Positions 4,860 through 57,008 of a stretch of 64,000 bases of DNA are shown in pieces. Position 1 is the stretch's first letter; the number at the start of each line of letters is the position of its first letter. Source of the DNA: Candidatus Omnitrophota bacterium (lineage in GTDB: Bacteria > Omnitrophota > Gorgyraeia > 2-01-FULL-45-10); contig JAQUQN010000001.1 in the NCBI GenBank assembly GCA_028716065.1, positions 13,266 to 77,265 on the forward strand, in the 5' to 3' direction. Below the pieces are notes generated by a model. It saw only the letters and a program-made list of their open reading frames with translations. It ran no database searches and was not told the origin of the DNA. Made by a program: the position numbers and the translations under genes.

Positions 4860-5924
4860 ATGGCTCATGACCTGAAAAAACTTTTAAAGGAGATGGTTGA
4901 AAAAAACGCCTCGGACGTTCACATAACGGTCCATTCTCCTATAAGGATGAGGATAGATGAAAAACTCATCTCCATAGATAATCATGACCTAACACCCGAA
5001 GAGACGAAGGAGATATCTTACAGCATCCTGAATAAACAGCAGATAGAGAGGTTTGAGAATGAGCTTGAACTTGACATGTCCTTCGGCCTTGAGGGCGTGA
5101 GCCGTTTCAGGGTCAACATATTCAAACAGAGAGGCTGTATAGGATGTTCCATAAGATTGATCCCCTATGAGATATGGACCTTCGACCAGTGCGGACTACC
5201 CGTCGATGTGGTGACCAATCTTTGCAATAAACCGAAGGGGCTGGTCCTCATAACCGGCGAGACGGGAAGCGGAAAATCCACGAGCCTGGCCTCGATGATA
5301 GACTGGATAAACAAACACAAGGCATGCCACATAATAACCGTGGAAGACCCCATAGAGTTTGTCCATAATAATAAGCAGTCGATCGTCGATCAACGCGAGG
5401 TGTACAGCGATACCTATTCGTTTTCGGCGGCCCTGAAACATGTGTTGAGACAGGATCCCGATGTCATACTGATAGGCGAGATGAGGGACCTGGAGACGAT
5501 AGAGTCCGCTTTGATAATCGCCGAAACGGGACACCTGGTATTGGCGACGCTGCATACTTCCGACTGCGTCCAGACAATAAACAGGATCATAGATGTCTTC
5601 CCGTCGCATCAGCAGCAGCAGATAAGGACCCAGCTCTCATTCGTTCTAATAGGGGTTTTGTCGCAGCAATTGATACCCAAGATAAAAGGCCCCGGCCGCA
5701 TCCTCGCGACGGAAGTATTGATAGTAAACCCGGCCGTCAGAAGCCTGATAAGAGAGACGAAGATACATCAGCTCTATTCCGTGATACAGACATCGCAGAG
5801 AGAGGGCATGAAGACGATGAATCAGGCTTTGTACGAACTCTATCAGAAAAAACTCATATCCTATGAAGAGGCCTTCGCGAGATCGACGGATCCGGATGAC
5901 CTCTCGAGGATCTTTAAAAGGTAA
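4860..5924 (+). CDS. pilT: Type IV pilus retraction ATPase PilT
   Basis: Walker A GETGSGKST, the PilT-specific AVRSLIRE motif, and a length of about 354 aa. The AAGGAG RBS lies 6 nt upstream of ATG 4860. The gene is tightly packed after the GGDEF gene. Confidence 0.85.
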   Translation: MAHDLKKLLKEMVEKNASDVHITVHSPIRMRIDEKLISIDNHDLTPEETKEISYSILNKQQIERFENELELDMSFGLEGVSRFRVNIFKQRGCIGCSIRLIPYEIWTFDQCGLPVDVVTNLCNKPKGLVLITGETGSGKSTSLASMIDWINKHKACHIITVEDPIEFVHNNKQSIVDQREVYSDTYSFSAALKHVLRQDPDVILIGEMRDLETIESALIIAETGHLVLATLHTSDCVQTINRIIDVFPSHQQQQIRTQLSFVLIGVLSQQLIPKIKGPGRILATEVLIVNPAVRSLIRETKIHQLYSVIQTSQREGMKTMNQALYELYQKKLISYEEAFARSTDPDDLSRIFKR

Positions 5925-11225: not shown

Positions 11226-11555
11226 ATGTTAAGAAGAAAGGGCTTTACGCTCGTTGAAATTATGATAGTAGTCGCAATTATCGGTTTATTAGCGGCGATA
11301 GCCATTCCTAACTTCATCAAGGCGAGAGAGACGGCCGAGAAGAACGCTTGTATCGCGAACCTGAAACAGATCCAGGGAGCGGTCCAGGTATGGGCGATAG
11401 ATAACGGCAAGACCAGTAGCGATACGCCCACGACCGGCGACCTCGTTCCGAATTACATTAAGGCATGGCCTAAATGTAAAGGGACGGCTTATGCCGTACC
11501 TGCTGTTAGCGCGGATCCGGCTTGTCCAGGTACTATATCCGGACACACGTTATAA
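11226..11555 (+). CDS. pilA: Type IVa pilin (prepilin, class III signal)
   Basis: MLRRKG|FTLVEIMIVVAIIGLLAAIAIP N-terminal methylation motif. C-terminal Cys pair. 109 aa. Confidence 0.85.
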   Translation: MLRRKGFTLVEIMIVVAIIGLLAAIAIPNFIKARETAEKNACIANLKQIQGAVQVWAIDNGKTSSDTPTTGDLVPNYIKAWPKCKGTAYAVPAVSADPACPGTISGHTL

Positions 11556-11596
11556 GATAGGAAGGTTACTGACGTTTATATTTAGTTAACGAGCGG

Positions 11597-11631
11597 CCCC
11601 ACACTCAGCTTGCTGGGTGTGGGGTTTTTTT
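11597..11631 (+). terminator. Rho-independent terminator after pilA
   Basis: 13-bp GC-rich stem (ccccacactcagc / gctgggtgtgggg), a 3-nt loop, then TTTTTTT. Confidence 0.7.
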
Positions 11632-11706
11632 GCGCATTTTGAGCTAAGTATTTTCATTCCTAACCTTGACAAAGTCCTCTTTATATGATAAATTCTTTTT
11701 AATAAG

Positions 11707-12180
11707 ATGAAAATTTGTTTTAAATATTATCGTAATGCATTTACCCCGTTAGAGAAAACCACCGATTTTAATCAGTGGTTATATCCGGATAAAGCTAACC
11801 CCGTTAGAAAAGATTTTTCTAAGGCGGTAAAAGAACCGCTAAATTCTCTAACGGGGTTTACGTTAGTTGAAATAATGATCGTTGTTGCCATAATAGCGAT
11901 CATAATAGCGATAGCCCTTCCGAATTATCTCAAAACGAGCACAGTTTCCAAAAAGACCATCTGCATAAATAATCTGAAACAGATAGACGCTGCCATAGAC
12001 CAGTGGGCCATGGAGAACGATATTCCCAAGGGCGCTCAGGCAACGGAAGAAGTCTATGATTATGTAAACGGCTCCAGGATAACTTGTCCGTCAGGAGGTG
12101 TATATACGTTACATTCGGTGGGAAGCAAGCCGCAGGTCACATGCAGTTTGGAAAATGAGGGGCATAAACTTCCGGAATGA
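11707..12180 (+). CDS. Second pilin-like protein with an unusually long 52-aa leader
   Basis: The mature part, G|FTLVEIMIVVAIIAIIIAIALPNY..., is homologous to pilA. ATG 11707 is the only in-frame start before it. Palindromic-element half-sites are embedded in the leader-coding DNA. Confidence 0.65.
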   Translation: MKICFKYYRNAFTPLEKTTDFNQWLYPDKANPVRKDFSKAVKEPLNSLTGFTLVEIMIVVAIIAIIIAIALPNYLKTSTVSKKTICINNLKQIDAAIDQWAMENDIPKGAQATEEVYDYVNGSRITCPSGGVYTLHSVGSKPQVTCSLENEGHKLPE

Positions 12181-24070: not shown

Positions 24071-25324
24071 ATGAAGAGAGAAGATATTAAAAAATTATGC
24101 CGGAGGGCTAAGGCGGGATCCAGGAAGCTTGCCCTTCTTGACTCAGAGACGAAGAGCCGTATCCTGATAGCCATGTCCAAGGGACTGATAAGAGGGCTGC
24201 CGACGATACTCAAGGAGAACGAAAAGGATGTGGCCTCCGCCAGAAAAAGGTCTTTACCCGGCGCCCTGATAGACAGGTTGACGCTCAATCCATCCCGGAT
24301 AAGATCGATGGCCGATTCGTTGTTGAAGATAGCGGCTCTCAAAGACCCCGTGGGAGAGGTAACCGAGACCGTAAAAAGGCCCAACGGGCTTATTATCAAA
24401 AAGGTGAAAGTTCCCATAGGCGTGATACTCATCATTTATGAATCGAGGCCCAACGTGACCAGCGACTGCATAGGGCTGTGCCTGAAATCCGGGAACTCTG
24501 TCATCTTAAGAGGCGGCAGCGAAGCCATAAGGTCCAATATCGCCATATTCGATGCCCTGAACAGGGCGGCCCTCAGGCGCGGTCTTCCCGAGGATGCCAT
24601 GACGATGATCAAGGATACCGATAGAAAGCTGGTGAACGAGCTGTTAAAACAGGAGGGCTTAATAGACCTGGTCATGCCGCGCGGAGGAGAGTCGCTCATA
24701 CGCGAAGTTTCAGCAAATTCCCGCATACCAGTTATCAAGCATTATAAAGGGGTATGTCATACCTACATCGACAAGGACGCGGATCTAAAGATGGCCGAGG
24801 ATATCGCCTTCAACGCGAAGGTCCAGCGGCCCGGTGTCTGTAACGCCATGGAGACGATGCTGGTGCACAAGGATGCGTCAAGGGACTTCCTGCCGGTGAT
24901 GATAGAGCGGTTTAAACACGCCGGCGTAGAGATAAGAGGCTGTCCGAAGACCAGAAAGATAGTCAAAGGAATCCTAGCGGCCAGGGAGGATGACTGGTAC
25001 GCCGAATATCTTGATCTCATACTGTCCGTCAAGGTCGTCGAAGATATCGACGAGGCTATCGAACATATAATGCGTTACGGCTCGTATCATTCGGACACGA
25101 TCGTCACGGATAATGAGGCTGCTGCATCGAAATTCCTTAAAGAGGTAGACTCGGCTTGCGTATATGTCAATGCGTCCACGCGTTTTACGGACGGAGGTGA
25201 GTTTGGTAAAGGGGCCGAGATAGGAATATCGACCGATAAGATACACGCGCGCGGCCCGATGGGGTTAGAGGAGCTCACGTCGTATAAATATCTGGTTTAT
25301 GGGAACGGACAGATCAGGAAATGA
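24071..25324 (+). CDS. proA: Gamma-glutamyl phosphate reductase
   Basis: Aldehyde-dehydrogenase-family ProA signature. Position after proB. Confidence 0.9.
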   Translation: MKREDIKKLCRRAKAGSRKLALLDSETKSRILIAMSKGLIRGLPTILKENEKDVASARKRSLPGALIDRLTLNPSRIRSMADSLLKIAALKDPVGEVTETVKRPNGLIIKKVKVPIGVILIIYESRPNVTSDCIGLCLKSGNSVILRGGSEAIRSNIAIFDALNRAALRRGLPEDAMTMIKDTDRKLVNELLKQEGLIDLVMPRGGESLIREVSANSRIPVIKHYKGVCHTYIDKDADLKMAEDIAFNAKVQRPGVCNAMETMLVHKDASRDFLPVMIERFKHAGVEIRGCPKTRKIVKGILAAREDDWYAEYLDLILSVKVVEDIDEAIEHIMRYGSYHSDTIVTDNEAAASKFLKEVDSACVYVNASTRFTDGGEFGKGAEIGISTDKIHARGPMGLEELTSYKYLVYGNGQIRK

Positions 25325-25331
25325 GTTTACG

Positions 25332-25901
25332 ATGCGAATAGGAATATTGGGAGGCACGTTCAATCCGATACACATAGGGCACCTGATCCTTGCGGAAGAG
25401 GCCTGTTTCAAGCTTAAGCTCGACAAGGTGATATTCGTGCCGACATTCATTCCTCCACACAAAGAGATAGCGCCCAGCGTAAAGCCAAAGGACCGCCTTA
25501 AGATGGTAAAGTTGGCCATAGAAAAGAACCCTGCCTTTGAGGTATCCAGGTATGAGATAGACTCAAAGAAGAAATCGTATTCGATAGATACTTTAAAGGA
25601 GTTCAGGAAGAAATACGGAGAGGCAGCTCAACTATTCTTCATAACGGGGTCCGATTCGCTCAAGGACCTTTTTTCATGGAAAGACGTGAATGACATTTTC
25701 AAGATATCCAAGTTCATAGTGGCCAATAGGCCCGGCTACCCGGTCAGGGAAGTTCCGAAGGAAGTCGAGACGGTTGTGATAACGCCCATTGAGGTCTCTT
25801 CGGAAGATATCAGAAAGAGGCTCAAAGAGGCAAGGTCGATAAGGTATCTCGTTCCCGAAAAAGTTAGGAATTATATCATCAACCGCAATCTATATAAGTA
25901 A
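25332..25901 (+). CDS. nadD: Nicotinate-nucleotide adenylyltransferase
   Basis: MRIGILGGTFNPIHIGHL (HxGH motif). ATG 25332 follows the proA stop. The ORF track's 25299 start overlaps proA. Confidence 0.85.
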   Translation: MRIGILGGTFNPIHIGHLILAEEACFKLKLDKVIFVPTFIPPHKEIAPSVKPKDRLKMVKLAIEKNPAFEVSRYEIDSKKKSYSIDTLKEFRKKYGEAAQLFFITGSDSLKDLFSWKDVNDIFKISKFIVANRPGYPVREVPKEVETVVITPIEVSSEDIRKRLKEARSIRYLVPEKVRNYIINRNLYK

Positions 25902-25902
25902 A

Positions 25903-25931
25903 CCCCGTTAGAAAAATCTTTTCTAACGGGG
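25903..25931. repeat. 29-nt perfect palindromic element CCCCGTTAGAAAAATCTTTTCTAACGGGG (copy 1)
   Basis: 13-bp arms around a 3-nt centre, starting 2 nt after the nadD stop. An identical copy lies at 35616-35644, and split half-sites lie in the pilA2 leader (11747-11857). Confidence 0.65.
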
Positions 25932-35275: not shown

Positions 35276-35388
35276 TATTATTTTTGTATCTCCTCGCTTA
35301 GCGGCTTCTCGATAAGGTTCCCCCTCTTAAAACCGAGTGCATCGCCCGAACATTATATGGCCACGAGGCCAGGACCCTTCGCCTAATT

Positions 35389-35417
35389 TTGCTCTCATGA
35401 ATTTTGGCTACTATAAT
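35389..35417 (+). promoter_or_regulatory. Candidate promoter TTGCTC-N17-TATAAT inside the long rsmA-gatC spacer
   Basis: Located at 35389-35394 and 35412-35417. It would give a roughly 550-nt untranslated leader before gatC. Confidence 0.35.
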
Positions 35418-35615
35418 AGGTAGTTATAGAGTTATTTTGGCCTTACGCTAACGAAGTCGCTAATTTGCTTTAGGAGGTAATTAAGTACTTAGCAAAATTT
35501 TACGGCTCAGGGCCCATGGCCTCATGGCCACCTAAAGTATGCTCTGCTACATCGGCCTTAAAGGGGACCCCTTTTAGCGAAGAAGCCACCCTCGACCCGG
35601 ACATAAAATATCTTA

Positions 35616-35644
35616 CCCCGTTAGAAAAATCTTTTCTAACGGGG
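35616..35644. repeat. 29-nt palindromic element, copy 2 (identical to 25903-25931)
   Basis: Exact match CCCCGTTAGAAAAATCTTTTCTAACGGGG. Confidence 0.65.
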
Positions 35645-35664
35645 TGAACTTGGGGAACTGGGGT

Positions 35665-35897
35665 GGGAAATTTACGGGTGACACGACTAAGACTTTTGCG
35701 CGCACAAGCGAAGCGCGGGATGGGGGTGTCCGCCGTTTAGGATTACCGAAAAAACGCGTATACGTTTTATATAGTCGGACGTTCCGTTAATCCTGGCGGA
35801 CATACAGACACCAAGTGTCTATTGCCGGTCTATTGTGAACCCCGCGCGGAGTGCGGAGCACAAAAGTCTTAGTAGTGGCAGGACCCGTAAATTTCCC
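35665..35897. other. 233-nt element closed by 14-bp perfect plus 11-bp terminal inverted repeats: candidate structured ncRNA or MITE-like mobile remnant
   Basis: GGGAAATTTACGGG (35665-78) pairs with CCCGTAAATTTCCC (35884-97). TAAGACTTTTG (35688-98) pairs with CAAAAGTCTTA (35861-71). Several internal hairpins (for example GTCCGCC..AGGATTA / TAATCCT..GGCGGAC). Confidence 0.4.
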
Positions 35898-35974
35898 ATA
35901 TAAGACTTGCGGAGAATTTGACTTTGGCGGGGAAGTGTGGTAAGTTATACAAAAAGGCGGCTAAAGTGACGAAA

Positions 35975-43728: not shown

Positions 43729-43861
43729 GCGTAAAGTGTAAAGCGAAAAGCGCAAAATTTCCCGCTGTGGCGGGATCCCGCAAAAGGCGGGAAAAACTTA
43801 GAGTTTAAAGCGTTTTAAGTTTTACGTTTTAATTTTACGTTTTGCGCTTTGCGTTTTACAC
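43728..43861. promoter_or_regulatory. About 22-bp imperfect inverted repeats (GTGTAAAGCGAAAAGCGCAAAA / TTTTGCGCTTTGCGTTTTACAC) flanking a set of mutually exclusive CCCGC/GCGGG hairpins
   Basis: 43758-43796 reads tttCCCGCtgtgGCGGGatCCCGCaaaagGCGGGaaaa. It lies between two HTH_17 genes, making it a candidate operator or centromere-like site. Confidence 0.4.
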
Positions 43862-43887
43862 TAAAGGTAGTTATAGGGGTATTAATT

Positions 43888-49509: not shown

Positions 49510-50633
49510 TGATAAATAAAGTAGGTTTTATAGGTCATCCAATAGATCTGGAGCATCTATACAAAATGCTTGGACCATGGGCATTTTTTGCCAGGAAGAT
49601 AGCACCTTATCAACTTAATGCGATGCTTAAAAATATTCCGCCATATAGGCTTGTTTCGGTTAAAAATATACGATCCGCTAAGAACGCATTGATTGACTGC
49701 CACACGATTATCTGCCCTCTCATGCCTACAGCTATGGTAAGCCTTGACGAAGAGTTTGTACTTAAGAAAATAACACAAGCGGTAAAAGTTGCCGAGCGGC
49801 TAGGTGCGAAAATAGTTACGCTTGGCGGTTTCACGTCTGTGGTAGGCAATGAAGGTGAAACGGTTTCTAAACGCGTCGGTGTGCCGATTACAAGCGGTAA
49901 TACTTATACCGCGGCCCTTGCCATTGAAGGCATATTAAAGGCCGCGTATTATATGGAGATAGACCTTGCGCGGGCGACGCTTGCTGTAATAGGCGCCACA
50001 GGAGACATAGGTTCGATATGTACGAAGGTTTTATCCAAAAAGATGCAAAAGCTTAATATCGTTGCTCGGAATGAGGAACGGATGAATGTACTAATGCGGG
50101 AAGTGCAACATGATGGCAGGGTTCAAGTTGAGACATTTAAATATTACAAAGACGCCGTTAAAAACGCTGACATAATACTTGCCGTTACAAGTGCCGTTTC
50201 TACTATAATCGAGCCGGAAAATTTAAAGCCCGGTTCTATCGTCTGCGACGTCGCTATCCCGGCGAATATAGCCAAAGAAGTTGTTAATGTAAGGAATGAT
50301 GTGTTTGTCTTTGAGGGTGGATTGGCGAAACTTCCTTATCAACATGAAATAAAGGACAGGGTTTTTAACGAACTTATGCCCTCTGGAAGTATCTATGGTT
50401 GTCTTGCCGAAGGAATGGTTCTTGCTTTCGATGGAAAGTTCGAAAATTACTCTATCGGGCGCGGAAATATAACAGAAGAGAAAATTAATGAGATATCTAA
50501 AATAGCAAGAAAGCACGGCCTTCATCTTGCGGACTTTTTTTGCGGATATAGATTTTATTCCGAAGATGACATGGAATCAATCAAACGAAATGCAAAAAGG
50601 AATATCTTAAGTGGAAAATTCGTTAAAAGATAA
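49509..50633 (+). CDS. Acyl-ACP reductase (AAR) family homolog (fatty aldehyde-forming)
   Basis: Recalled cyanobacterial AAR blocks match: GFIGHPIDLEHL~GLIGHLTSLEQ; IVTLGGFTSVV~ISALGGFTSII; TSGNTYTAAL~TTGNTHTAYV; LAVIGATGDIGS~VAVVGATGDIGS; catalytic-Cys context IYGCLAEGM~MFACFAEAM; GRGNITEEKINEI~GRNQITIEKMEAI. The start overlaps the KAS1 stop by 1 nt. Confidence 0.65.
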   Translation: MINKVGFIGHPIDLEHLYKMLGPWAFFARKIAPYQLNAMLKNIPPYRLVSVKNIRSAKNALIDCHTIICPLMPTAMVSLDEEFVLKKITQAVKVAERLGAKIVTLGGFTSVVGNEGETVSKRVGVPITSGNTYTAALAIEGILKAAYYMEIDLARATLAVIGATGDIGSICTKVLSKKMQKLNIVARNEERMNVLMREVQHDGRVQVETFKYYKDAVKNADIILAVTSAVSTIIEPENLKPGSIVCDVAIPANIAKEVVNVRNDVFVFEGGLAKLPYQHEIKDRVFNELMPSGSIYGCLAEGMVLAFDGKFENYSIGRGNITEEKINEISKIARKHGLHLADFFCGYRFYSEDDMESIKRNAKRNILSGKFVKR

Positions 50634-51354
50634 AGTAGTGGTTGTTACGGGTGGTTCGCGAGGAATCGGCAGAGCGATCGTCTTTGAATTCATATATAAC
50701 GGAGCAAAGGTTGTCTTTACGTATTTAAAGAGCGATGAAGCCGCCGGTGTAGTTTTAGATGAGATAAAGGAATTAAAAGGAGAGGCAGAAGCTATAAAAT
50801 CCGATTCAAGAGATTTTATTGAGGCAAAAAAGGTCGTAGAAGAAACGGTAAAAAAATTTGGGAGGCTCGACATACTCGTAAATTCCGCCGGTATAATCAA
50901 GGATAAGGCATTAATGATGATGGAGCCTTCGGAATGGCAGGAAGTGATTAATACCAACTTAACGGGTTACTTTAATATGGCAAAGGCCTCGATAGTTACT
51001 ATGATGAAGCAAAAGAGTGGTTCGATAATAAATATATCATCAGTCGCGGGAGTCATCGGGACGGCCAGACAGGTAAATTACGCAAGCGCAAAGGCAGGCA
51101 TTATAGGTTTTACAAAATCGTTAGCCAAAGAGGTGGCTTCTTATAATATACGTGTTAATTCTGTAGCACCAGGATATATCGAAACAGACATGACAAAAGA
51201 TTTAAAGCAGAAAGAAAGCTTGCTTAAGATTATACCAGTTGCCCGTTTTGGCACACCTCAGGAAGTGGCGAAAGTGGTAGCCTTCTTAGCCAGCGAAAAG
51301 GCAAATTACATTACCGGTCAGGTAATAAAAGTAGATGGGGGATTAGCAATTTAA
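50611..51354 (+). CDS. fabG: 3-oxoacyl-ACP reductase (SDR)
   Basis: TGGSRGIG cofactor motif, NSAG, and a YxxxK catalytic dyad (YASAKAG). Confidence 0.85.
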   Translation: MENSLKDKVVVVTGGSRGIGRAIVFEFIYNGAKVVFTYLKSDEAAGVVLDEIKELKGEAEAIKSDSRDFIEAKKVVEETVKKFGRLDILVNSAGIIKDKALMMMEPSEWQEVINTNLTGYFNMAKASIVTMMKQKSGSIINISSVAGVIGTARQVNYASAKAGIIGFTKSLAKEVASYNIRVNSVAPGYIETDMTKDLKQKESLLKIIPVARFGTPQEVAKVVAFLASEKANYITGQVIKVDGGLAI

Positions 51355-51369
51355 AAATAGGAGTTATAT

Positions 51370-51624
51370 ATGCCAGAGATTAATTCGCAGAATTTGGAAC
51401 AAGAATTAAGATCGCTCATAGCCAGTATTGTCGAGATAGATGAGAAGAAGATTACACCGGAAGCAAAGTTTATCGAAGACCTGGGAATGGATTCGATGAT
51501 GGCGCTTGAAATATTAGCATCGGTGGAGAAAAAATATAAGATAAGAATACCGGAAGAAAATTTAGCAAAAATGACAAATTTAAATAAAGTTGCTGACCTC
51601 GTGAAAGGATTTTTATCAAAATGA
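51370..51624 (+). CDS. acpP: Acyl carrier protein
   Basis: DLGMDSMMALE phosphopantetheine-attachment motif, 84 aa. Confidence 0.85.
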   Translation: MPEINSQNLEQELRSLIASIVEIDEKKITPEAKFIEDLGMDSMMALEILASVEKKYKIRIPEENLAKMTNLNKVADLVKGFLSK

Positions 51625-52835
51625 AAAGGCGTGTTGTCGTGACAGGATTAGGCGCTGTAACGTCAATAGGAATCGGCAAAGATGAATTTTGGAAGAATCT
51701 TATAGCCGGAAAATCAGGGATAGGTAACGTTACCACATTTAATACATCTGATTATCCAATTAATAAAGGCGGCGAGGTCAAAAATTTTAAACCAACGGAT
51801 TTTATTTCCAAAAATAAGTTAAAAGATATGGCCAGGGCGTCTCAATTTGCTGTTGCTGCGGCAAAAATGGCACTGGAAGATGCGAAATTGAGTATAAATG
51901 AGATAAGGGAACAGAAAACCGGAACTATAATTGGGACAACAATGGCAGATATCCAATCTCTCGAGCAGATTGATAAATACTGGACTAAAAACGGCGAAGA
52001 TGAAGTTTGGCCTATAAATGTTATTAAATATCCAGGTAATGAGTTATCAGAAAATATAGGCTATTTTTTTGATATAAGCGGACCTAATTATACGATACCA
52101 ACTGCATGTTCAGCTGGTAATTACTCTATTGCATATGCATTTGATCTTATTCGTGAAAATAGATCGCATATTATGATTGCAGGAGGTACGGATCCATTTT
52201 CTAGAATTACGTTTACTGGATTTAATCGTCTTTATGCTATGGCGCCGGAAAAGTGCCAACCATTTGATAAAAATAGAAAAGGAATGATGATAGGAGAGGG
52301 TTCTGGTATTTTGATTTTAGAAGAATTGGAAGCTGCTAAAAAAAGAAAGGCAAATATTTATTGTGAGATATTAGGATATGGGTTGAGTTGCGATGCTTAC
52401 AATATGACAATTCCGCGAGTCGAAGGAGTTGTCAAAGTCATGGAAAAAGCAATAAAGAATAGTGGAGTTGCTAAGGAGGACATAGATTATATTAGCGCCC
52501 ATGGAACCGGCACTCCGGCAAATGATAAGACAGAATGTGAAGCTATAAAAAAAGTATTTGGCAATTTAAGCAAAGACTTATCAGTTAGTTCGATAAAATC
52601 GATGCTTGGTCATACTATGGGTGCCGCAAGCGCATTAGAGGCGATAACATGTTGTCTTGCCATTCAAAATTCAACTATGCCCCCAACTATTAACTACGAG
52701 ACACCCGATCCAGACTGTGATTTGGATATTACTCCTAATAATGCCAAGAAAAAGATGCTTAAAGTAGTTTTAAACAATTCTTTTGCTTTTGGTGGAAATA
52801 ATGCATGTGTGGTGTTAGGAAGGTATAGAAATTAA
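51621..52835 (+). CDS. fabF: Beta-ketoacyl-ACP synthase II (complete Cys-His-His triad)
   Basis: TACSAG (Cys), SAHGTGTPANDK (His) and GHTMGAASA (His). Confidence 0.85.
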   Translation: MKRRVVVTGLGAVTSIGIGKDEFWKNLIAGKSGIGNVTTFNTSDYPINKGGEVKNFKPTDFISKNKLKDMARASQFAVAAAKMALEDAKLSINEIREQKTGTIIGTTMADIQSLEQIDKYWTKNGEDEVWPINVIKYPGNELSENIGYFFDISGPNYTIPTACSAGNYSIAYAFDLIRENRSHIMIAGGTDPFSRITFTGFNRLYAMAPEKCQPFDKNRKGMMIGEGSGILILEELEAAKKRKANIYCEILGYGLSCDAYNMTIPRVEGVVKVMEKAIKNSGVAKEDIDYISAHGTGTPANDKTECEAIKKVFGNLSKDLSVSSIKSMLGHTMGAASALEAITCCLAIQNSTMPPTINYETPDPDCDLDITPNNAKKKMLKVVLNNSFAFGGNNACVVLGRYRN

Positions 52836-52840
52836 AAAAT

Positions 52841-53431
52841 ATGAGCACAGAATCTTTATTATTAAATTTAATAAAATCAAGAAGGACGATTAGGAAATAT
52901 AAAAAGCTGGATGTTAAAGATGACTTGATTAATAAAATATTAGAAGCAGCTAGATGGGCGCCGTCGGCGCATAATATACAACCTTGGAAATTTGTTGTTG
53001 TGAAAGATACGAGAGTAATTAATGAAATATATGAGATTATGATGAAAAAGGAAAAACAGTTGTTGGCTGGATTCAATATAGTTTTAAAGGAAACTGCCAA
53101 GTGTTTAATAAACTGTAAATGTGTAATTGTAGCTTATACAGATGGTAGCATATTAAGAAAATTCAATAGATTAGAAGAGCCATATGCGTCTATCGGAAGA
53201 ATATATGAAATTCAATCGGTGTCTTTTGCAATAGATAATATAATGTTGTATGTACATGCCTTAGGCTTAGGCACAGCATGTTTGGGAATGGCTCTATTTT
53301 GCGAAAAAGAAATCAACAAATTACTTAAACAGAAGGGTAATCTTATAGCTCTTTTATCGTTAGGTTTTCCCGATGAGACGCCTGCTGCTAGAGCACGAAA
53401 GTCTTTATTACAAGTTAGCCAAACAATATGA
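52841..53431 (+). CDS. Nitroreductase-family flavoprotein
   Basis: RRTIRKYKK...AARWAPSAHNIQPWKFVVV motif. Confidence 0.75.
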   Translation: MSTESLLLNLIKSRRTIRKYKKLDVKDDLINKILEAARWAPSAHNIQPWKFVVVKDTRVINEIYEIMMKKEKQLLAGFNIVLKETAKCLINCKCVIVAYTDGSILRKFNRLEEPYASIGRIYEIQSVSFAIDNIMLYVHALGLGTACLGMALFCEKEINKLLKQKGNLIALLSLGFPDETPAARARKSLLQVSQTI

Positions 53432-54879
53432 AAATAAGCACTAAATACGATGTGATTATTATAGGTAGTGGGATAGGGGGACTTGTTAGTGGATGCTATT
53501 TGGCAAGGGCCGGCATGAAAGTTCTAGTTGCAGAACAACACGTTAGTCCAGGAGGCTATTGTAGTTCATTTAAAAGAAGAGGATTTACTTTTGATTCGAG
53601 CATTCATTATATAAAATTTAGCGAGAAGGAAAGTTTGCTTGCCAGGATAATAGAAGATTTTAAAATAGAAAAACACATTAGATTTTATAATCTTAATCAA
53701 TCAGATTTAATTATTACACCAGCTGGCCAGTTTTATATTAATAGTGACATATCAAAAACAATAGCCAATTTAATAGATATTTTTCCTAGTGAAGAAAAGG
53801 GAATAAAGGACTTCTTTGATTTTTTGAATACAAAAAATATAGCGTTTTTATATTCTAGAACGAGAAACAGAACATTATTTGATTTGATGAAAATATATTT
53901 CAAGAATAAGGAATTGATAGCAATATTTAATTGTCTTTTAATGAATATAGGTTTGCCTATAGATAGGGTTGATGCACTAAAGGCGTATTTCTTTTTCAAG
54001 GAATTTTTCTTTAATCAAAGTTATTATCCAAGAGGTGGTATGCAAAAATTTGCAGATACATTAGCCTCTGTGTTAATAGGTTACGGGGGAGAAATAATGT
54101 ATTCTAATAGAGTTGATAAAATAATAACGAAAAATAATAAAAGTAACGGCGTGATAATTGACAAAATGAAGATTCGGTCGAATTATGTAATTAGCAATGC
54201 AGATCCTCATAACACATTCATAGAGTTAGTAGGTAAAAACAAAATATCAAAAAAATTATTGAATCGAATAAAGCGCTTAATTCCATCTATGTCCGCATTT
54301 ATTGTATATATAGGGCTAGATAGTAGTGTTAAATCGAATTATTCTATAAATAATAGTATATGGTATTTCCCATCCTCAAACTTTAACAGAACCTATGATG
54401 CGATAAGAAATGGAAAGCCAATAATAAAAGATGATTACTTAATATGCTCGTTTCCATCTTCCTATGATAAAAATCTAGCACCTAGCGGAGGCGTTTCAGT
54501 TGCCATATTTTCTGGCGCCACATTTAATACAAAAAAATATTGGGAAAACCACAGAAGAAAATTTGAAGAAAATATTATAAGGAGAGCCAGAGCCATATTT
54601 CCATGTATCTCCGAACATGTAAAAGTTTTATTATCAGCTACACCCTTTACGCTTTATAGATATACACATAATCTTAAGGGAGCTTGCTATGGGCTTGCTT
54701 CTTTAAGAACACAGATGCGCAAGACTTTTATGCCACAACAGACAGAAATAGAAAATCTTTTTATGGCTGGACATTGGACTACGCATGGAATAGGTCAAGG
54801 TGGGCTATCAATGGCAGCATTTTCTGGAGTTTCCGCCGCCAAGCGTATAATTAAACTAAAACCAGAAGGTAGATTATGA
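53428..54879 (+). CDS. FAD-dependent oxidoreductase, phytoene-desaturase (CrtI/CrtD)-like
   Basis: N-terminal dinucleotide-binding motif DVIIIGSGIGGLVSGCYLARAG...GGYCSS and a CrtI-family length of 483 aa. Confidence 0.75.
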   Translation: MKISTKYDVIIIGSGIGGLVSGCYLARAGMKVLVAEQHVSPGGYCSSFKRRGFTFDSSIHYIKFSEKESLLARIIEDFKIEKHIRFYNLNQSDLIITPAGQFYINSDISKTIANLIDIFPSEEKGIKDFFDFLNTKNIAFLYSRTRNRTLFDLMKIYFKNKELIAIFNCLLMNIGLPIDRVDALKAYFFFKEFFFNQSYYPRGGMQKFADTLASVLIGYGGEIMYSNRVDKIITKNNKSNGVIIDKMKIRSNYVISNADPHNTFIELVGKNKISKKLLNRIKRLIPSMSAFIVYIGLDSSVKSNYSINNSIWYFPSSNFNRTYDAIRNGKPIIKDDYLICSFPSSYDKNLAPSGGVSVAIFSGATFNTKKYWENHRRKFEENIIRRARAIFPCISEHVKVLLSATPFTLYRYTHNLKGACYGLASLRTQMRKTFMPQQTEIENLFMAGHWTTHGIGQGGLSMAAFSGVSAAKRIIKLKPEGRL

Positions 54880-57008
54880 CAATTTACGCATTATCTTCCT
54901 TTTCAGCATCTTTTCTTTTATATTTTCTAGCGCTTTTTGTTTATTTGAATAATAAAAAAAGATTTTTAAATCAAATTTATGCTGTTCAGGCAGTTATAAT
55001 AGGATCTTGGATATTTGGATGCTTTGGGGAAAGCGTTATAAATAACTATCAGTTTATAACCATTTGGGATAAAGCGCTAAATATTTTTGCGATATTTTCT
55101 CCACCCTTATTTTTGCATACTTATTATGCCATTCTAGGAGAAAGGGCCACTAAGCCAGTAAAATTTCTATATGCGCTATCAGTCATTTTACTATTTTTAA
55201 GTTTTAATCCTTTGTATATTAAGAGTGTTGAGTATCGATATGGTGTTAGATTTATTTCTAATCCTGGTCCGCTTTATAGCATTTTTATATTTGCTGTTTT
55301 ATTCGCTTTTTCAATTAGCTTCTATAAAATTTTTAATGCATTAAAGAATGCAGATAGTCAGAAAAAAACACAGCTTAACTATGTAATAATTGCAACAGCA
55401 AGTATGTTTATTGCGGCAGTTATATATTTAGCAATGGTTTTAAATGTAGCAATATCACCTCTTGATAATACTTTAAACTCTATATATGGGCTTCTTATTG
55501 CCTATGCCATTGTTCGTCATCAGTTGATGGATATTTCAGTAATCATAAAAAAGACCCTCGTCTTTGCGGGGCTTTTGGCTTCTGTCTTTGCAATACTGAT
55601 TTTACCTACCTTGATTATACAAGAATACTTGTTAAGAGGAGCAGGGTTTAAGGGTAGGATGATAGGCCTTACCATAAGCGGTATAATAATAATATTAACC
55701 ATGCGCAGGATCGAGAACTTTCTCATTAATATAACCGACAAATACCTCTTCCAGAAGAAATACGATTATAAGGAACTGCTCAAGACATTCACAGCAGAAG
55801 TATTAACAGTTCTAAACCTTGACAGGTTGGTGGACCTTACAATAGACAAATTATCGGATATAATCAAACTAATCTCTGCGGCAGTATTGTTATTCGATGA
55901 TGATAAACAGGAATTTAAGATAGCCGCCTCCCAAGGCATAAAAGACCCATCGCTGACGCTGATAAGGCCTGACGGCATAGTGACATTCTTAGAACAGACA
56001 CATGGTTATTTATTGAGGAAGGAATTGGTTGAAAAGAAGATATTTATACCGGATACCATAAAAGATATCATGGATAAGTTGAATGCAGAGCTCATCATAC
56101 CGATGGTGCTCCACGAAGAAGTAATAGGTGTCTTATCCCTGGGCAAGAAAAAATCAGATGAAGATTACTCTCAGGATGATTTAGATATATTACTGCCCCT
56201 GGCCAGAACCCTTGCCATCGCTATCTCGAACGCAAAACTATTCGCCGAACTCGGTAAGACTCAAGCCGAAGCTGCCCAGAGAGAGAAGATGGCGGTCATA
56301 GGGACGCTCTCGGCAGGGATAAATCACGAAATATGTAATCCGCTGGGAATAGCAAGGGGGCAGTGTGAAGCGTTCTTGTTGAATATTAAGGACGGGCTCT
56401 ATAAAGACAAGAGCCAGGAGGACCTGTTAAAAAAGGCGCAGGAGATCATGACGAAGGTCATCAAGGAGACGGACAGGGCTACGGCCATAACGAAGAAACT
56501 CTCCGGTTTTGCCAAACCCGCTAAGGGTGAAGCTGAAATGATCAATATAGATAAAGAGGTGGACGAAGTTTTGGGCCTCGTCGGTTATGAATTAAAACTG
56601 GAAAAGATAGAGGTTGAGAAACGTATCGAACAAGGCCTCCCGAGCATCTTTGTTGACAGGAAACAACTTCAGGAGGTACTGTTCAATCTCATAAGGAACG
56701 CAGGACAGGCGATAGGCGAGAAAGGCAAGATCACGGTTATAGCTAAGCAGGAGAAGAATACGATATCGATAGACATTAAAGATACGGGCTCGGGTATTCC
56801 GCAGGAGAAGATAAGAGAGTTATTCAACCCTTTCTTTACTACTAAAGAGCCGGGCAAGGGGACGGGGCTCGGGCTCTTCATAGTCCGCCAGGTCGTTGAA
56901 AAGAACGGCGGCCGTATCTATCTTAAAGAGACGAAGGTCGGCGAAGGGACGACGTTCACGCTTGAATTTCCGGCGTCCGTTTCTCAGGAAGCGAGGGTCA
57001 GGGCATGA
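54876..57008 (+). CDS. Sensor histidine kinase with a multi-TM N-terminal sensor and a GAF domain
   Basis: About 7 N-terminal TM helices, a GAF domain, HisKA (GINHEICNPL), and HATPase_c (GSGIPQE...GTGLGL). Confidence 0.8.
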   Translation: MTIYALSSFSASFLLYFLALFVYLNNKKRFLNQIYAVQAVIIGSWIFGCFGESVINNYQFITIWDKALNIFAIFSPPLFLHTYYAILGERATKPVKFLYALSVILLFLSFNPLYIKSVEYRYGVRFISNPGPLYSIFIFAVLFAFSISFYKIFNALKNADSQKKTQLNYVIIATASMFIAAVIYLAMVLNVAISPLDNTLNSIYGLLIAYAIVRHQLMDISVIIKKTLVFAGLLASVFAILILPTLIIQEYLLRGAGFKGRMIGLTISGIIIILTMRRIENFLINITDKYLFQKKYDYKELLKTFTAEVLTVLNLDRLVDLTIDKLSDIIKLISAAVLLFDDDKQEFKIAASQGIKDPSLTLIRPDGIVTFLEQTHGYLLRKELVEKKIFIPDTIKDIMDKLNAELIIPMVLHEEVIGVLSLGKKKSDEDYSQDDLDILLPLARTLAIAISNAKLFAELGKTQAEAAQREKMAVIGTLSAGINHEICNPLGIARGQCEAFLLNIKDGLYKDKSQEDLLKKAQEIMTKVIKETDRATAITKKLSGFAKPAKGEAEMINIDKEVDEVLGLVGYELKLEKIEVEKRIEQGLPSIFVDRKQLQEVLFNLIRNAGQAIGEKGKITVIAKQEKNTISIDIKDTGSGIPQEKIRELFNPFFTTKEPGKGTGLGLFIVRQVVEKNGGRIYLKETKVGEGTTFTLEFPASVSQEARVRA

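Follow-up and report, generated by a model that had tools for sequence, protein, structure and literature searches.

In-frame insertion of a palindromic, putatively mobile element at the prepilin cleavage codons of an Omnitrophota type IV pilin gene

The second pilin gene of a type IV pilus cluster in a Candidatus Omnitrophota bacterium (contig JAQUQN010000001.1, positions 13,266 to 77,265; this whole stretch of 64,000 nt is referred to as the window) raises the question of how a prepilin came by an abnormally long leader, the DNA of which contains three arms of a palindrome that also occurs elsewhere in the window. An earlier note on this DNA had suggested either a translational switch or thermosensor formed by competing RNA hairpins, or a 5′ end of the gene created by insertion of a palindromic element. 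The second suggestion was borne out by inverted-repeat ends, a target-site duplication, empty and filled orthologous sites and more than 100 similar cases, and we consider it very likely that an element resembling MITEs (transposable elements of the miniature inverted-repeat kind) inserted in frame at the prepilin cleavage codons and rebuilt the cleavage site, with the element-encoded peptide being cut off together with the leader. The gene and its insertion are laid out as follows, where a slash within a sequence string marks a cleavage site or junction, and where loci are labelled L and proteins P.

11707..12180, plus strand: second pilin open reading frame (ORF), 157 aa, consisting of a 50-aa leader and a 107-aa mature pilin
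11707..11739, plus strand: ancestral short leader MKICFKYYRNA, which aligns with MLKYFQKA and MIIFLRKA of uninserted orthologs
11740..11743, plus strand: left target-site duplication TTTA, the ancestral Phe+1 codon and the first base of Thr+2
11744..11856, plus strand: MITE-like palindromic element of 113 nt, which folds alone to -45.2 kcal/mol
11744..11756, plus strand: left terminal inverted repeat CCCCGTTAGAGAA, 13 nt, encoding (T)PLEK
11757..11780, plus strand: internal hairpin 1, AACCACCGA-TTTTAA-TCAGTGGTT, kept in L017, L042, L039 and L086 with changes on both stem strands
11799..11827, plus strand: internal degenerate copy of the 29-nt palindrome (the second half-site of the earlier note), with its own local hairpin and an equivalent inner arm in P0121
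11844..11856, plus strand: right terminal inverted repeat TTCTCTAACGGGG, 13 nt, encoding (N)SLTG and providing Gly-1
11854..11871, plus strand: rebuilt prepilin cleavage motif G/FTLVE, with GGG from the element, TTT-A from the duplication and the remainder ancestral
11857..11860, plus strand: right target-site duplication TTTA, a direct repeat of 11740..11743

Placed after Thr+2 and before Leu+3 in the ancestral prepilin, the insertion totals 117 nt (the 113-nt element and the 4-nt duplication), which equals 39 codons that are stop-free in frame, with junction DNA reading GCA TTTA/CCCCGTTAGAGAA...TTCTCTAACGGGG/TTTA CG TTA GTT GAA. The last two element codons, ACG GGG (Thr-Gly), rebuild G/FT together with the duplicated TTTA and the next base (Phe-Thr), and a dead copy of the old cleavage site is kept at the left junction (NA-FT-PLEK...). 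The 113-nt element has no coding capacity of its own. The three arms do belong to the 29-nt palindrome present at 25903 and 35616, as had been noticed before, and the right arm indeed encodes ...SLTG immediately 5′ of FTLVE, but the arms start at positions 11744, 11799 and 11844 rather than at 11747, 11798 and 11845; the inner arm CCCCGTTAGAAAA occupies 11799-11811 on the plus strand and the complementary right arm 11844-11856. Arm matches in the window exceed chance, with 8 found at ≤2 mismatches against 1.7 expected and none of 100 shuffles reaching 8, and the 7 matches of the 10-mer arm at ≤1 mismatch are all exact; the window contains three copies of the element.

The start of the gene had previously been assigned to ATG 11707 as the sole in-frame start, and this assignment holds, as it is the first ATG, GTG or TTG past the in-frame stops TGA TAA at 11686-11691 and aligns with the start of the short-leader orthologs. 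We take it to be the ancestral start, because the ATG and the promoter align throughout an alignment of five loci (the window and L001-L004). A downstream alternative start was rejected, with no in-frame ATG, GTG or TTG between 11707 and the EIM methionine at 11875; of the further start codons of translation table 11 (CTG, ATT, ATC and ATA), the leader contains just ATT at codon 3, and ATA directly precedes the EIM methionine. The Pfam N_methyl motif (PF07963) scored 26.6 bits (cut-off 21.2) over residues 50-71, where the protein reads G50/FTLVEIMIVVAIIAIIIAIALP, and because this motif starts at residue 50, the leader is 50 aa long with cleavage predicted at G50/F51; it is thus abnormally long, as stated earlier, although by two residues less than the 52 then counted. 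The second pilin has the Gly-1, Phe+1, Glu+5 and hydrophobic helix of the N-terminal methylation motif, and its leader lies outside the length of about 5-30 aa expected of a class III signal peptide, compared with 8-11 aa in orthologs. A protein identical to this 157-aa pilin (P0001) is present in the NCBI protein collection, from an Omnitrophota metagenome-assembled genome.

Comparison with the 5′ regions of orthologous pilin genes, which had been proposed as a check, gave both empty and filled sites. The N-termini align as MLKYFQKAFTLVE for P0003, MIIFLRKAFTLVE for P0019 and MKICFKYYRNAFT-[PLEK...NSLTG-FT]-LVE for the window. The locus (L003) of P0003, a protein 75% identical to the window pilin, has the empty site GCATTCA/CGCTAGTCGAG and that of P0019 (L004) the empty site GCCTTCA/CGCTGGTTGAG, and both are element-free with short leaders. 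At the same spot, the locus of P0005 (L001) carries a different 113-nt element of the same family, while in that of P0007 (L002), which is closely related to P0019, the spot is taken by an unrelated 26-nt palindrome, CCCAGCCCCTGCGTGCAGGGGCTGGG, and a duplicated TTCA. The L002 insert (503-536) yields KAFT-QPLRAGAG-FTLVE, and represents a second palindrome family at the same prepilin site. The nearest members of the window copy's subfamily (CCCCGTTAGAGAAAGCCACCGA...) were found at the non-orthologous loci L017, L029, L042, L039 and L086, and not at L001. As the window and L001 inserts come from different subfamilies, and the window gene has a closer relative in the empty ortholog P0003 than in the filled P0005, the two sites were most parsimoniously filled by separate insertions. 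An ancestral long leader was ruled out, since the top 120 homologs were mostly about 116-119 aa in length with short leaders. In four other long homologs (P0022, P0027, P0081 and P0118) the extension lies upstream of the basic residues and is free of arms, so that their starts appear to have been called too far upstream. When the translated insert was searched exhaustively against proteins, one relative was recovered, P0121, which we attribute to element interiors being too variable for detection at the protein level. The inner arm, seen in P0121 as well, is a conserved part of the element subfamily and not a regulatory competitor.

The same type of insertion recurs at prepilin sites. A genome collection was scanned for CCCCGTTAGA-N78-108-TCTAACGGGG, which gave at least 120 stretches with 98-128-nt elements bearing identical ends; in L017 and L070 the element sits at the same [GA]-F-T/L site of other pilin-like genes, an enrichment (2/122 copies at prepilin sites versus 0.034% of TTYA sites, p = 8e-4). 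A metagenome collection was scanned for the right junction, TCTAACGGGG followed by TTY ACN YTN NTN GAR (F-T-L-x-E), which was found in at least 120 stretches, and nearly all of those listed read M..K[GA]FT/PLE...[FS]LTG/FTLIE.... Single prepilin genes with double or triple tandem insertions, each flanked by TTTA, were seen in L218 (~5440-5590), L194 and L176, and also in L215, and several neighbouring pilin-like genes each have an insert in L146, L215 and L221.

For copies with an exact duplication, element length plus 4 was divisible by three in 66/75 (88%) at pilin sites versus 43/85 (51%) elsewhere (chi-square p about 1e-6). The in-frame pilin-site copies were stop-free in 62 of 66 cases (94%), compared with 38 of 170 same-frame orientations elsewhere (22%; 19/138 for copies ≥98 nt), and an in-frame ATG preceded any upstream stop in 117/124 complete pilin junctions (94%), with leaders from the nearest ATG having a median of 26 aa (range 5-68 aa). 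The few out-of-frame copies at pilin sites have an in-frame ATG within the element. The same 62-nt insert (85% identical) has apparently been retained in L126 and L130, the genes of which are 78% identical. Because the pilin-site copies, compared with those elsewhere, are in frame, stop-free and keep an upstream ATG, translation through the element at pilin sites is under selection, a pattern to be expected for genes that must still be translated from upstream and not for pseudogenes, hopping or excision. At the level of DNA, the junctions, alignments and counts together show that the element inserted at TTTA and duplicated it, that the frame was kept, that the predicted cleavage motif was rebuilt, that many genes were hit, and that frame and ORF are constrained at pilin sites.

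We propose that a non-autonomous palindromic element inserted into the TTTA spanning the Phe+1 and Thr+2 codons of a type IVa-like pilin gene and duplicated this TTTA, with its 39 stop-free codons keeping the reading frame running from the ancestral ATG 11707 and the putative G/FTLVE prepilin-peptidase site being rebuilt before the unchanged hydrophobic helix. Translation from ATG 11707 would give a prepilin with a 50-aa cytoplasmic leader; the hydrophobic helix would enter the membrane with this basic leader staying in the cytoplasm, and the prepilin peptidase would cut after Gly50, so that the element-encoded peptide leaves with the leader. The mature pilin would then equal that of the uninserted gene, and the insertion would be nearly silent. 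Repeated use of the prepilin site can be explained by its fit to the TNNA target preference (mostly TTTA or TTCA), by the large number of pilin-like genes in these phyla, and by its being one of few coding positions which tolerate insertion.

Several points weigh against this explanation. Characterised prepilins have leaders of ~5-30 aa, and it is from sequence that we infer prepilin peptidase cleavage of one of 50 aa. The insertion in the window could be so recent that decay of the gene has begun but does not yet show, and a helix of -45 kcal/mol located 37 nt into the ORF could, according to the folding model, reduce expression, which would make "silent" too strong a word. An exact duplication is missing from about half of the long copies (among the 124 copies listed), and the fetched loci, 1.58 Mb in all, yielded neither a transposase nor an autonomous copy with these ends. 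The two collection scans accepted exact 10-nt arms only and their totals are lower bounds, so their frequencies are no census, and the metagenome scan was built to detect pilin junctions only.

Alternatively, the insertion may have killed the gene, leaving the 157-codon ORF open by luck and pilin 2 as a recent pseudogene, with pilin 1 doing the work. The frequencies at pilin sites given above (88% in frame, 94% of those stop-free and 94% with an upstream ATG) are unexpected for dead genes, and open inserts are retained in diverged gene pairs; in the window, the mature part of the second pilin is intact through the conserved C-terminus CSLENEGHKLPE that is common to homologs, and its promoter is intact and conserved. 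On the other side, expression of the second pilin is a prediction from the sequence, a pilin with a normal leader is encoded directly upstream, and a 39-codon stop-free insert could occur by chance in about one copy in five (38/170 elsewhere). We consider loss of the gene improbable. To much the same degree we doubt that the leader has been co-opted, either with the basic-rich element peptide delaying or regulating prepilin processing or with mRNA structure tuning pilin stoichiometry. Peptides encoded at pilin sites have a more basic composition than translations in the same frame elsewhere (net charge +0.088 versus +0.032 per residue, K+R 17.7% versus 11.7%), but this bias is equally explained by a filter keeping the N-terminus cytoplasmic, and although inserts persist through gene divergence and tandem copies accumulate, their sequence and length (26-326 nt) vary freely with only the element ends conserved, and the nearest orthologs do without an insert.

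The switch or thermosensor of the earlier note, in which two upstream arms compete for one downstream arm and mutually exclusive hairpins gate pilin translation, fares worse and is in our view very improbable. The presence of three arms within 113 nt and the unusual structure of the region (11700-11900 folds to -61.9 kcal/mol, z = -6.9) are in its favour. However, the folding that had been advised as a check gave a single dominant fold in both partition-function and constrained calculations: the outer arms pair with a probability of 0.97-1.0 at 12 of 13 positions (0.73 at the innermost), the inner and right arms with a probability of 0.0, and a fold in which the left arm is kept unpaired is 12.1 kcal/mol less favourable. 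Occlusion of the early coding region by hairpins had also been raised as possible, but 11701-11714 (the start codon and its flanks) is 0.8-1.0 unpaired, with the helix starting 37 nt 3′ of the ATG, and a helix of -45 kcal/mol is not expected to melt at physiological temperatures. Uninserted orthologs lack this architecture. It is found with target duplications at intergenic sites of many phyla, which is the mark of a mobile element and not of a gene-specific regulator. The hairpin is strong because the element has inverted repeats, and a secondary effect on mRNA stability or elongation is possible. The Rfam search gave no matches for the whole window at the gathering score, and chance-level matches only for 11560-11960 by E-value. 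Least probable is that the insert is skipped, either by the ribosome hopping from the first TTT to the second or by precise excision of the hairpin between the TTTA repeats so as to restore a short leader. Identical TTT codons do flank the stable hairpin (at 11740 and 11857), but the take-off codon is not followed by a stop codon, assemblies from many independent samples contain the insert in their DNA, and neither hopping nor excision needs the conservation of frame and ORF that is so strong at pilin sites.

In addition to in-frame insertion with removal of the peptide, we tentatively raise a more specific possibility, to which we give rather less than even credence, that the family is a leader-peptide stowaway and its hits in pilin genes are more than accidents: the ends of the element may be shaped such that insertion at TTYA-C prepilin codons rebuilds Gly/Phe-Thr, after which the host prepilin peptidase would excise the product. 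If this is true, it would explain the tandem pile-up at the rebuilt site and the unrelated L002 palindrome at the same spot, and it would be the protein-level counterpart of the self-splicing of introns and inteins. The pilin-resident in-frame copies may also be the source copies of the family. A length bias to 2 mod 3, which with a 4-nt duplication gives an in-frame insert, was seen outside pilin sites too (43/85 and 54/124 versus one third expected, L005-L244), and this excess would be explained if pilin copies were the source.

Across genomes, the 80 titled loci among the matches listed comprised 39 from the Candidate Phyla Radiation (CPR)/Patescibacteria, 16 from Omnitrophota, 9 from Planctomycetota and 7 of Desulfobacterota type, with Edwardsbacteria, Stahlbacteria and Spirochaetia among the others. 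Exact 4-nt duplications were present in 65 of the 124 copies among the matches listed and 5-nt duplications in none (0/124), and in these matches the duplicated flanks fit TNNA, with 23 copies having TTTA or TAAA, 14 TGAA or TTCA, and 9 TCAA or TTGA. The modal perfect inverted repeat over the 124 listed copies was 13 nt, and interiors vary between genomes; element lengths range from 26 to 326 nt, with the window copy at 113 nt. Most of the listed copies lack an open frame across the element, which suggests a non-coding or intergenic position for the majority. In the 1.58 Mb of loci (the collection scans span up to 600 nt), no arm pair separated by 0.4-4 kb enclosed a transposase-sized ORF; pairs with matching flanks turned out to be small elements lying next to each other in adjacent pilin genes, and solitary arms with large ORFs beside them, inspected as candidate autonomous elements, were just neighbouring small elements or copies with one decayed arm. 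The long form of the element had no match in viral contigs, and the 21 short-hairpin matches in such contigs were mostly terminator-like stems with T-runs and without duplication, so that they do not establish carriage by phages. For proteins with twin-arginine-like signal peptides, copies with an open frame were also seen, either shortly upstream or inside the N-terminus (L091 1253-1353, ..NRREFL..; L104 974-1095, ..NRRNFL..), and other cleaved signal peptides may, judging from these two loci, tolerate the element as well.

The cluster hosting the gene encodes a type IV pilus, with a PilT-like ATPase, two PilB/GspE ATPases, PilC/GspF, two pilins, three pilin-like genes, PilM, PilO and a secretin. 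A prepilin-peptidase (A24) domain was not reported among the 28 window ORFs, a part of the total, that were scanned against Pfam. The features directly upstream of the second pilin gene are:

11226..11555, plus strand: first pilin gene, 109 aa, with a normal 6-aa leader (MLRRKG/FTLVE) and PF07963 over residues 1-27
11595..11626, plus strand: intrinsic-terminator-like hairpin with T-run at the end of the first pilin transcript, with equivalents upstream of the orthologous promoters in L001-L004
11666..11694, plus strand: promoter-like site TTGACA-17-TAAATT, including a TG; four orthologous loci share it as TTGACAAA...TATGATAAAT

The promoter of the second pilin gene is thus conserved over five loci, none of which has a Shine-Dalgarno sequence. 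The end of the -10 box is 12 nt from the ATG in the window versus 21-24 nt in orthologs, which implies a nearly leaderless mRNA in the window with a 5′ untranslated region of about 5-6 nt.

The window also contains two short forms of the element:

25903..25931, no strand assigned: 29-nt perfect palindrome CCCCGTTAGAAAAATCTTTTCTAACGGGG, short form, flanked by TAAA on both sides, with the left copy overlapping the TAA stop of a nadD-like ORF (25299-25901)
35616..35644, no strand assigned: 29-nt perfect palindrome CCCCGTTAGAAAAATCTTTTCTAACGGGG, second short form, intergenic, flanked by CTTA and TGAA, an inexact duplication

Insertion of the first of these left the end of the nadD-like ORF unchanged, as the left TAAA contains the TAA stop. 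The second lies in a gap of ~620 nt (35280-35915) between a ksgA-like gene and a gatC-like ORF, where a long-range inverted repeat (35679-35701/35858-35880) adjoins the palindrome; this gap gave no Rfam, tRNA or tmRNA match, and could be a so far unrecognised structured RNA or another repeat element. A pair of 23-nt inverted repeats (91% complementary, with 82 nt between the arms) at 43735-43862, followed by another palindrome (43758-43793), is possibly a MITE-like element of a second, unrelated kind. The GC content drops to 33-39% at ~50000-56000 versus about 45-51% in the remaining window, which suggests a horizontally acquired island.

These results explain an odd annotation, that of prepilins with leaders of 30-70 aa at no fewer than 120 metagenome loci and several genome loci of uncultivated phyla, and serve as a warning to annotators that such starts are not to be trimmed and such genes not to be called broken. 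They also provide a natural experiment on the leader tolerance of prepilin peptidase and of pilin membrane insertion, with at least 120 variants that have 8 to about 60 extra residues, tandems included. The element would have a distinct route of survival for selfish DNA in a coding region, as it occupies a segment which the host is predicted to discard proteolytically and whose cleavage site is rebuilt on landing. It further defines a MITE-like family by identical 10-nt ends in Omnitrophota, CPR, Planctomycetota and Desulfobacterota, and this spread across phyla needs explaining.

No earlier account of palindromic elements within prepilin leaders emerged from literature searches by arm sequence, peptide motif and topic. 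Among known systems of similar behaviour, the closest in function are the Rickettsia palindromic elements (RPEs), palindromic repeats described in frame within Rickettsia protein-coding genes (Ogata et al. 2000, in the summaries of PMC10969869 and PMC3184786). Both are palindromes, of about 100-150 nt for RPEs, inserted in frame and translated as an extra peptide that the host protein tolerates, and in-frame insertion with preservation of the ORF is likewise seen here, in the 39 stop-free codons of the window copy and in 66 of 75 pilin-site copies. The hosts here are Omnitrophota, CPR, Planctomycetota and others, so this likeness is functional only, and no sequence relationship is claimed. Whereas RPEs occur in many unrelated mature proteins with the peptide kept in the product, the family described here uses one motif, the prepilin cleavage site, where the peptide is predicted to be removed; it also rebuilds its target motif, has clear 4-nt TNNA duplications and spans several phyla. 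To our knowledge, RPEs are confined to Rickettsia.

Classical MITEs (Correia/CREE, ERIC, RUP, Nezha and Chunjie) are likewise small and non-coding, with terminal inverted repeats, duplications and very stable predicted hairpins; related genomes show both empty and filled sites for them, and now and then they are fused to ORFs (PMC3184786, PMC10969869). Judged by its sequences, the family shows the MITE features examined (terminal inverted repeats, target duplication, small size without transposase coding, and dispersed copies with empty and filled sites) save an identified parent insertion sequence, none having been found in the fetched loci. Its CCCCGTTAGA ends, 4-nt TNNA duplication and size series from 26 to >300 nt, nested and tandem forms included, have no counterpart among the reviewed MITE families, of which Chunjie for instance has 21-bp inverted repeats and 9-bp duplications (PMC3184786), and its ends are identical across phyla with differing interiors. 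The 29-nt short forms, being perfect palindromes that are usually intergenic and in one case directly follow a stop codon, resemble REP elements, short for repetitive extragenic palindromes, and their REPIN hairpin forms associated with RAYT transposases (PMC3733652). Assignment to these was rejected, as REPs have a GTAG/CGTC head and no target duplication, whereas the arms here begin with CCCC and are flanked by TNNA direct repeats. Integron attC sites were dismissed too, since the core order is reversed (5′-GTTAGA...TCTAAC-3′ versus 5′-RYYYAAC...GTTRRRY-3′) and the copies are scattered, with target duplications.

Type IVb and other long-leader pilins (TcpA, BfpA and CofA) have leaders of about 13-30 aa. 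The second pilin resembles them in having a long basic N-terminal leader that is predicted to be cut by prepilin peptidase after Gly-1, but its mature protein is type IVa-like (F+1, E+5, about 107 aa), and the 39 residues by which its leader is longer stem from mobile DNA, not from inheritance. Inteins, group I and II introns and bypass elements (T4 gene 60, mitochondrial byps) are also insertions that stay quiet because the product is removed or skipped. Programmed bypass was rejected for the element described here, as the TTT codons on either side do match but there is a strong constraint on the segment to stay in frame and free of stops; in contrast to all of these systems there is no self-splicing or hopping, and removal is predicted to be carried out by the host leader peptidase, for which an open and in-frame insert is required and observed. 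We would therefore regard the finding as a variant form of in-frame insertion of the MITE or RPE type, apparently new in its site and in the cleavage motif that it rebuilds.

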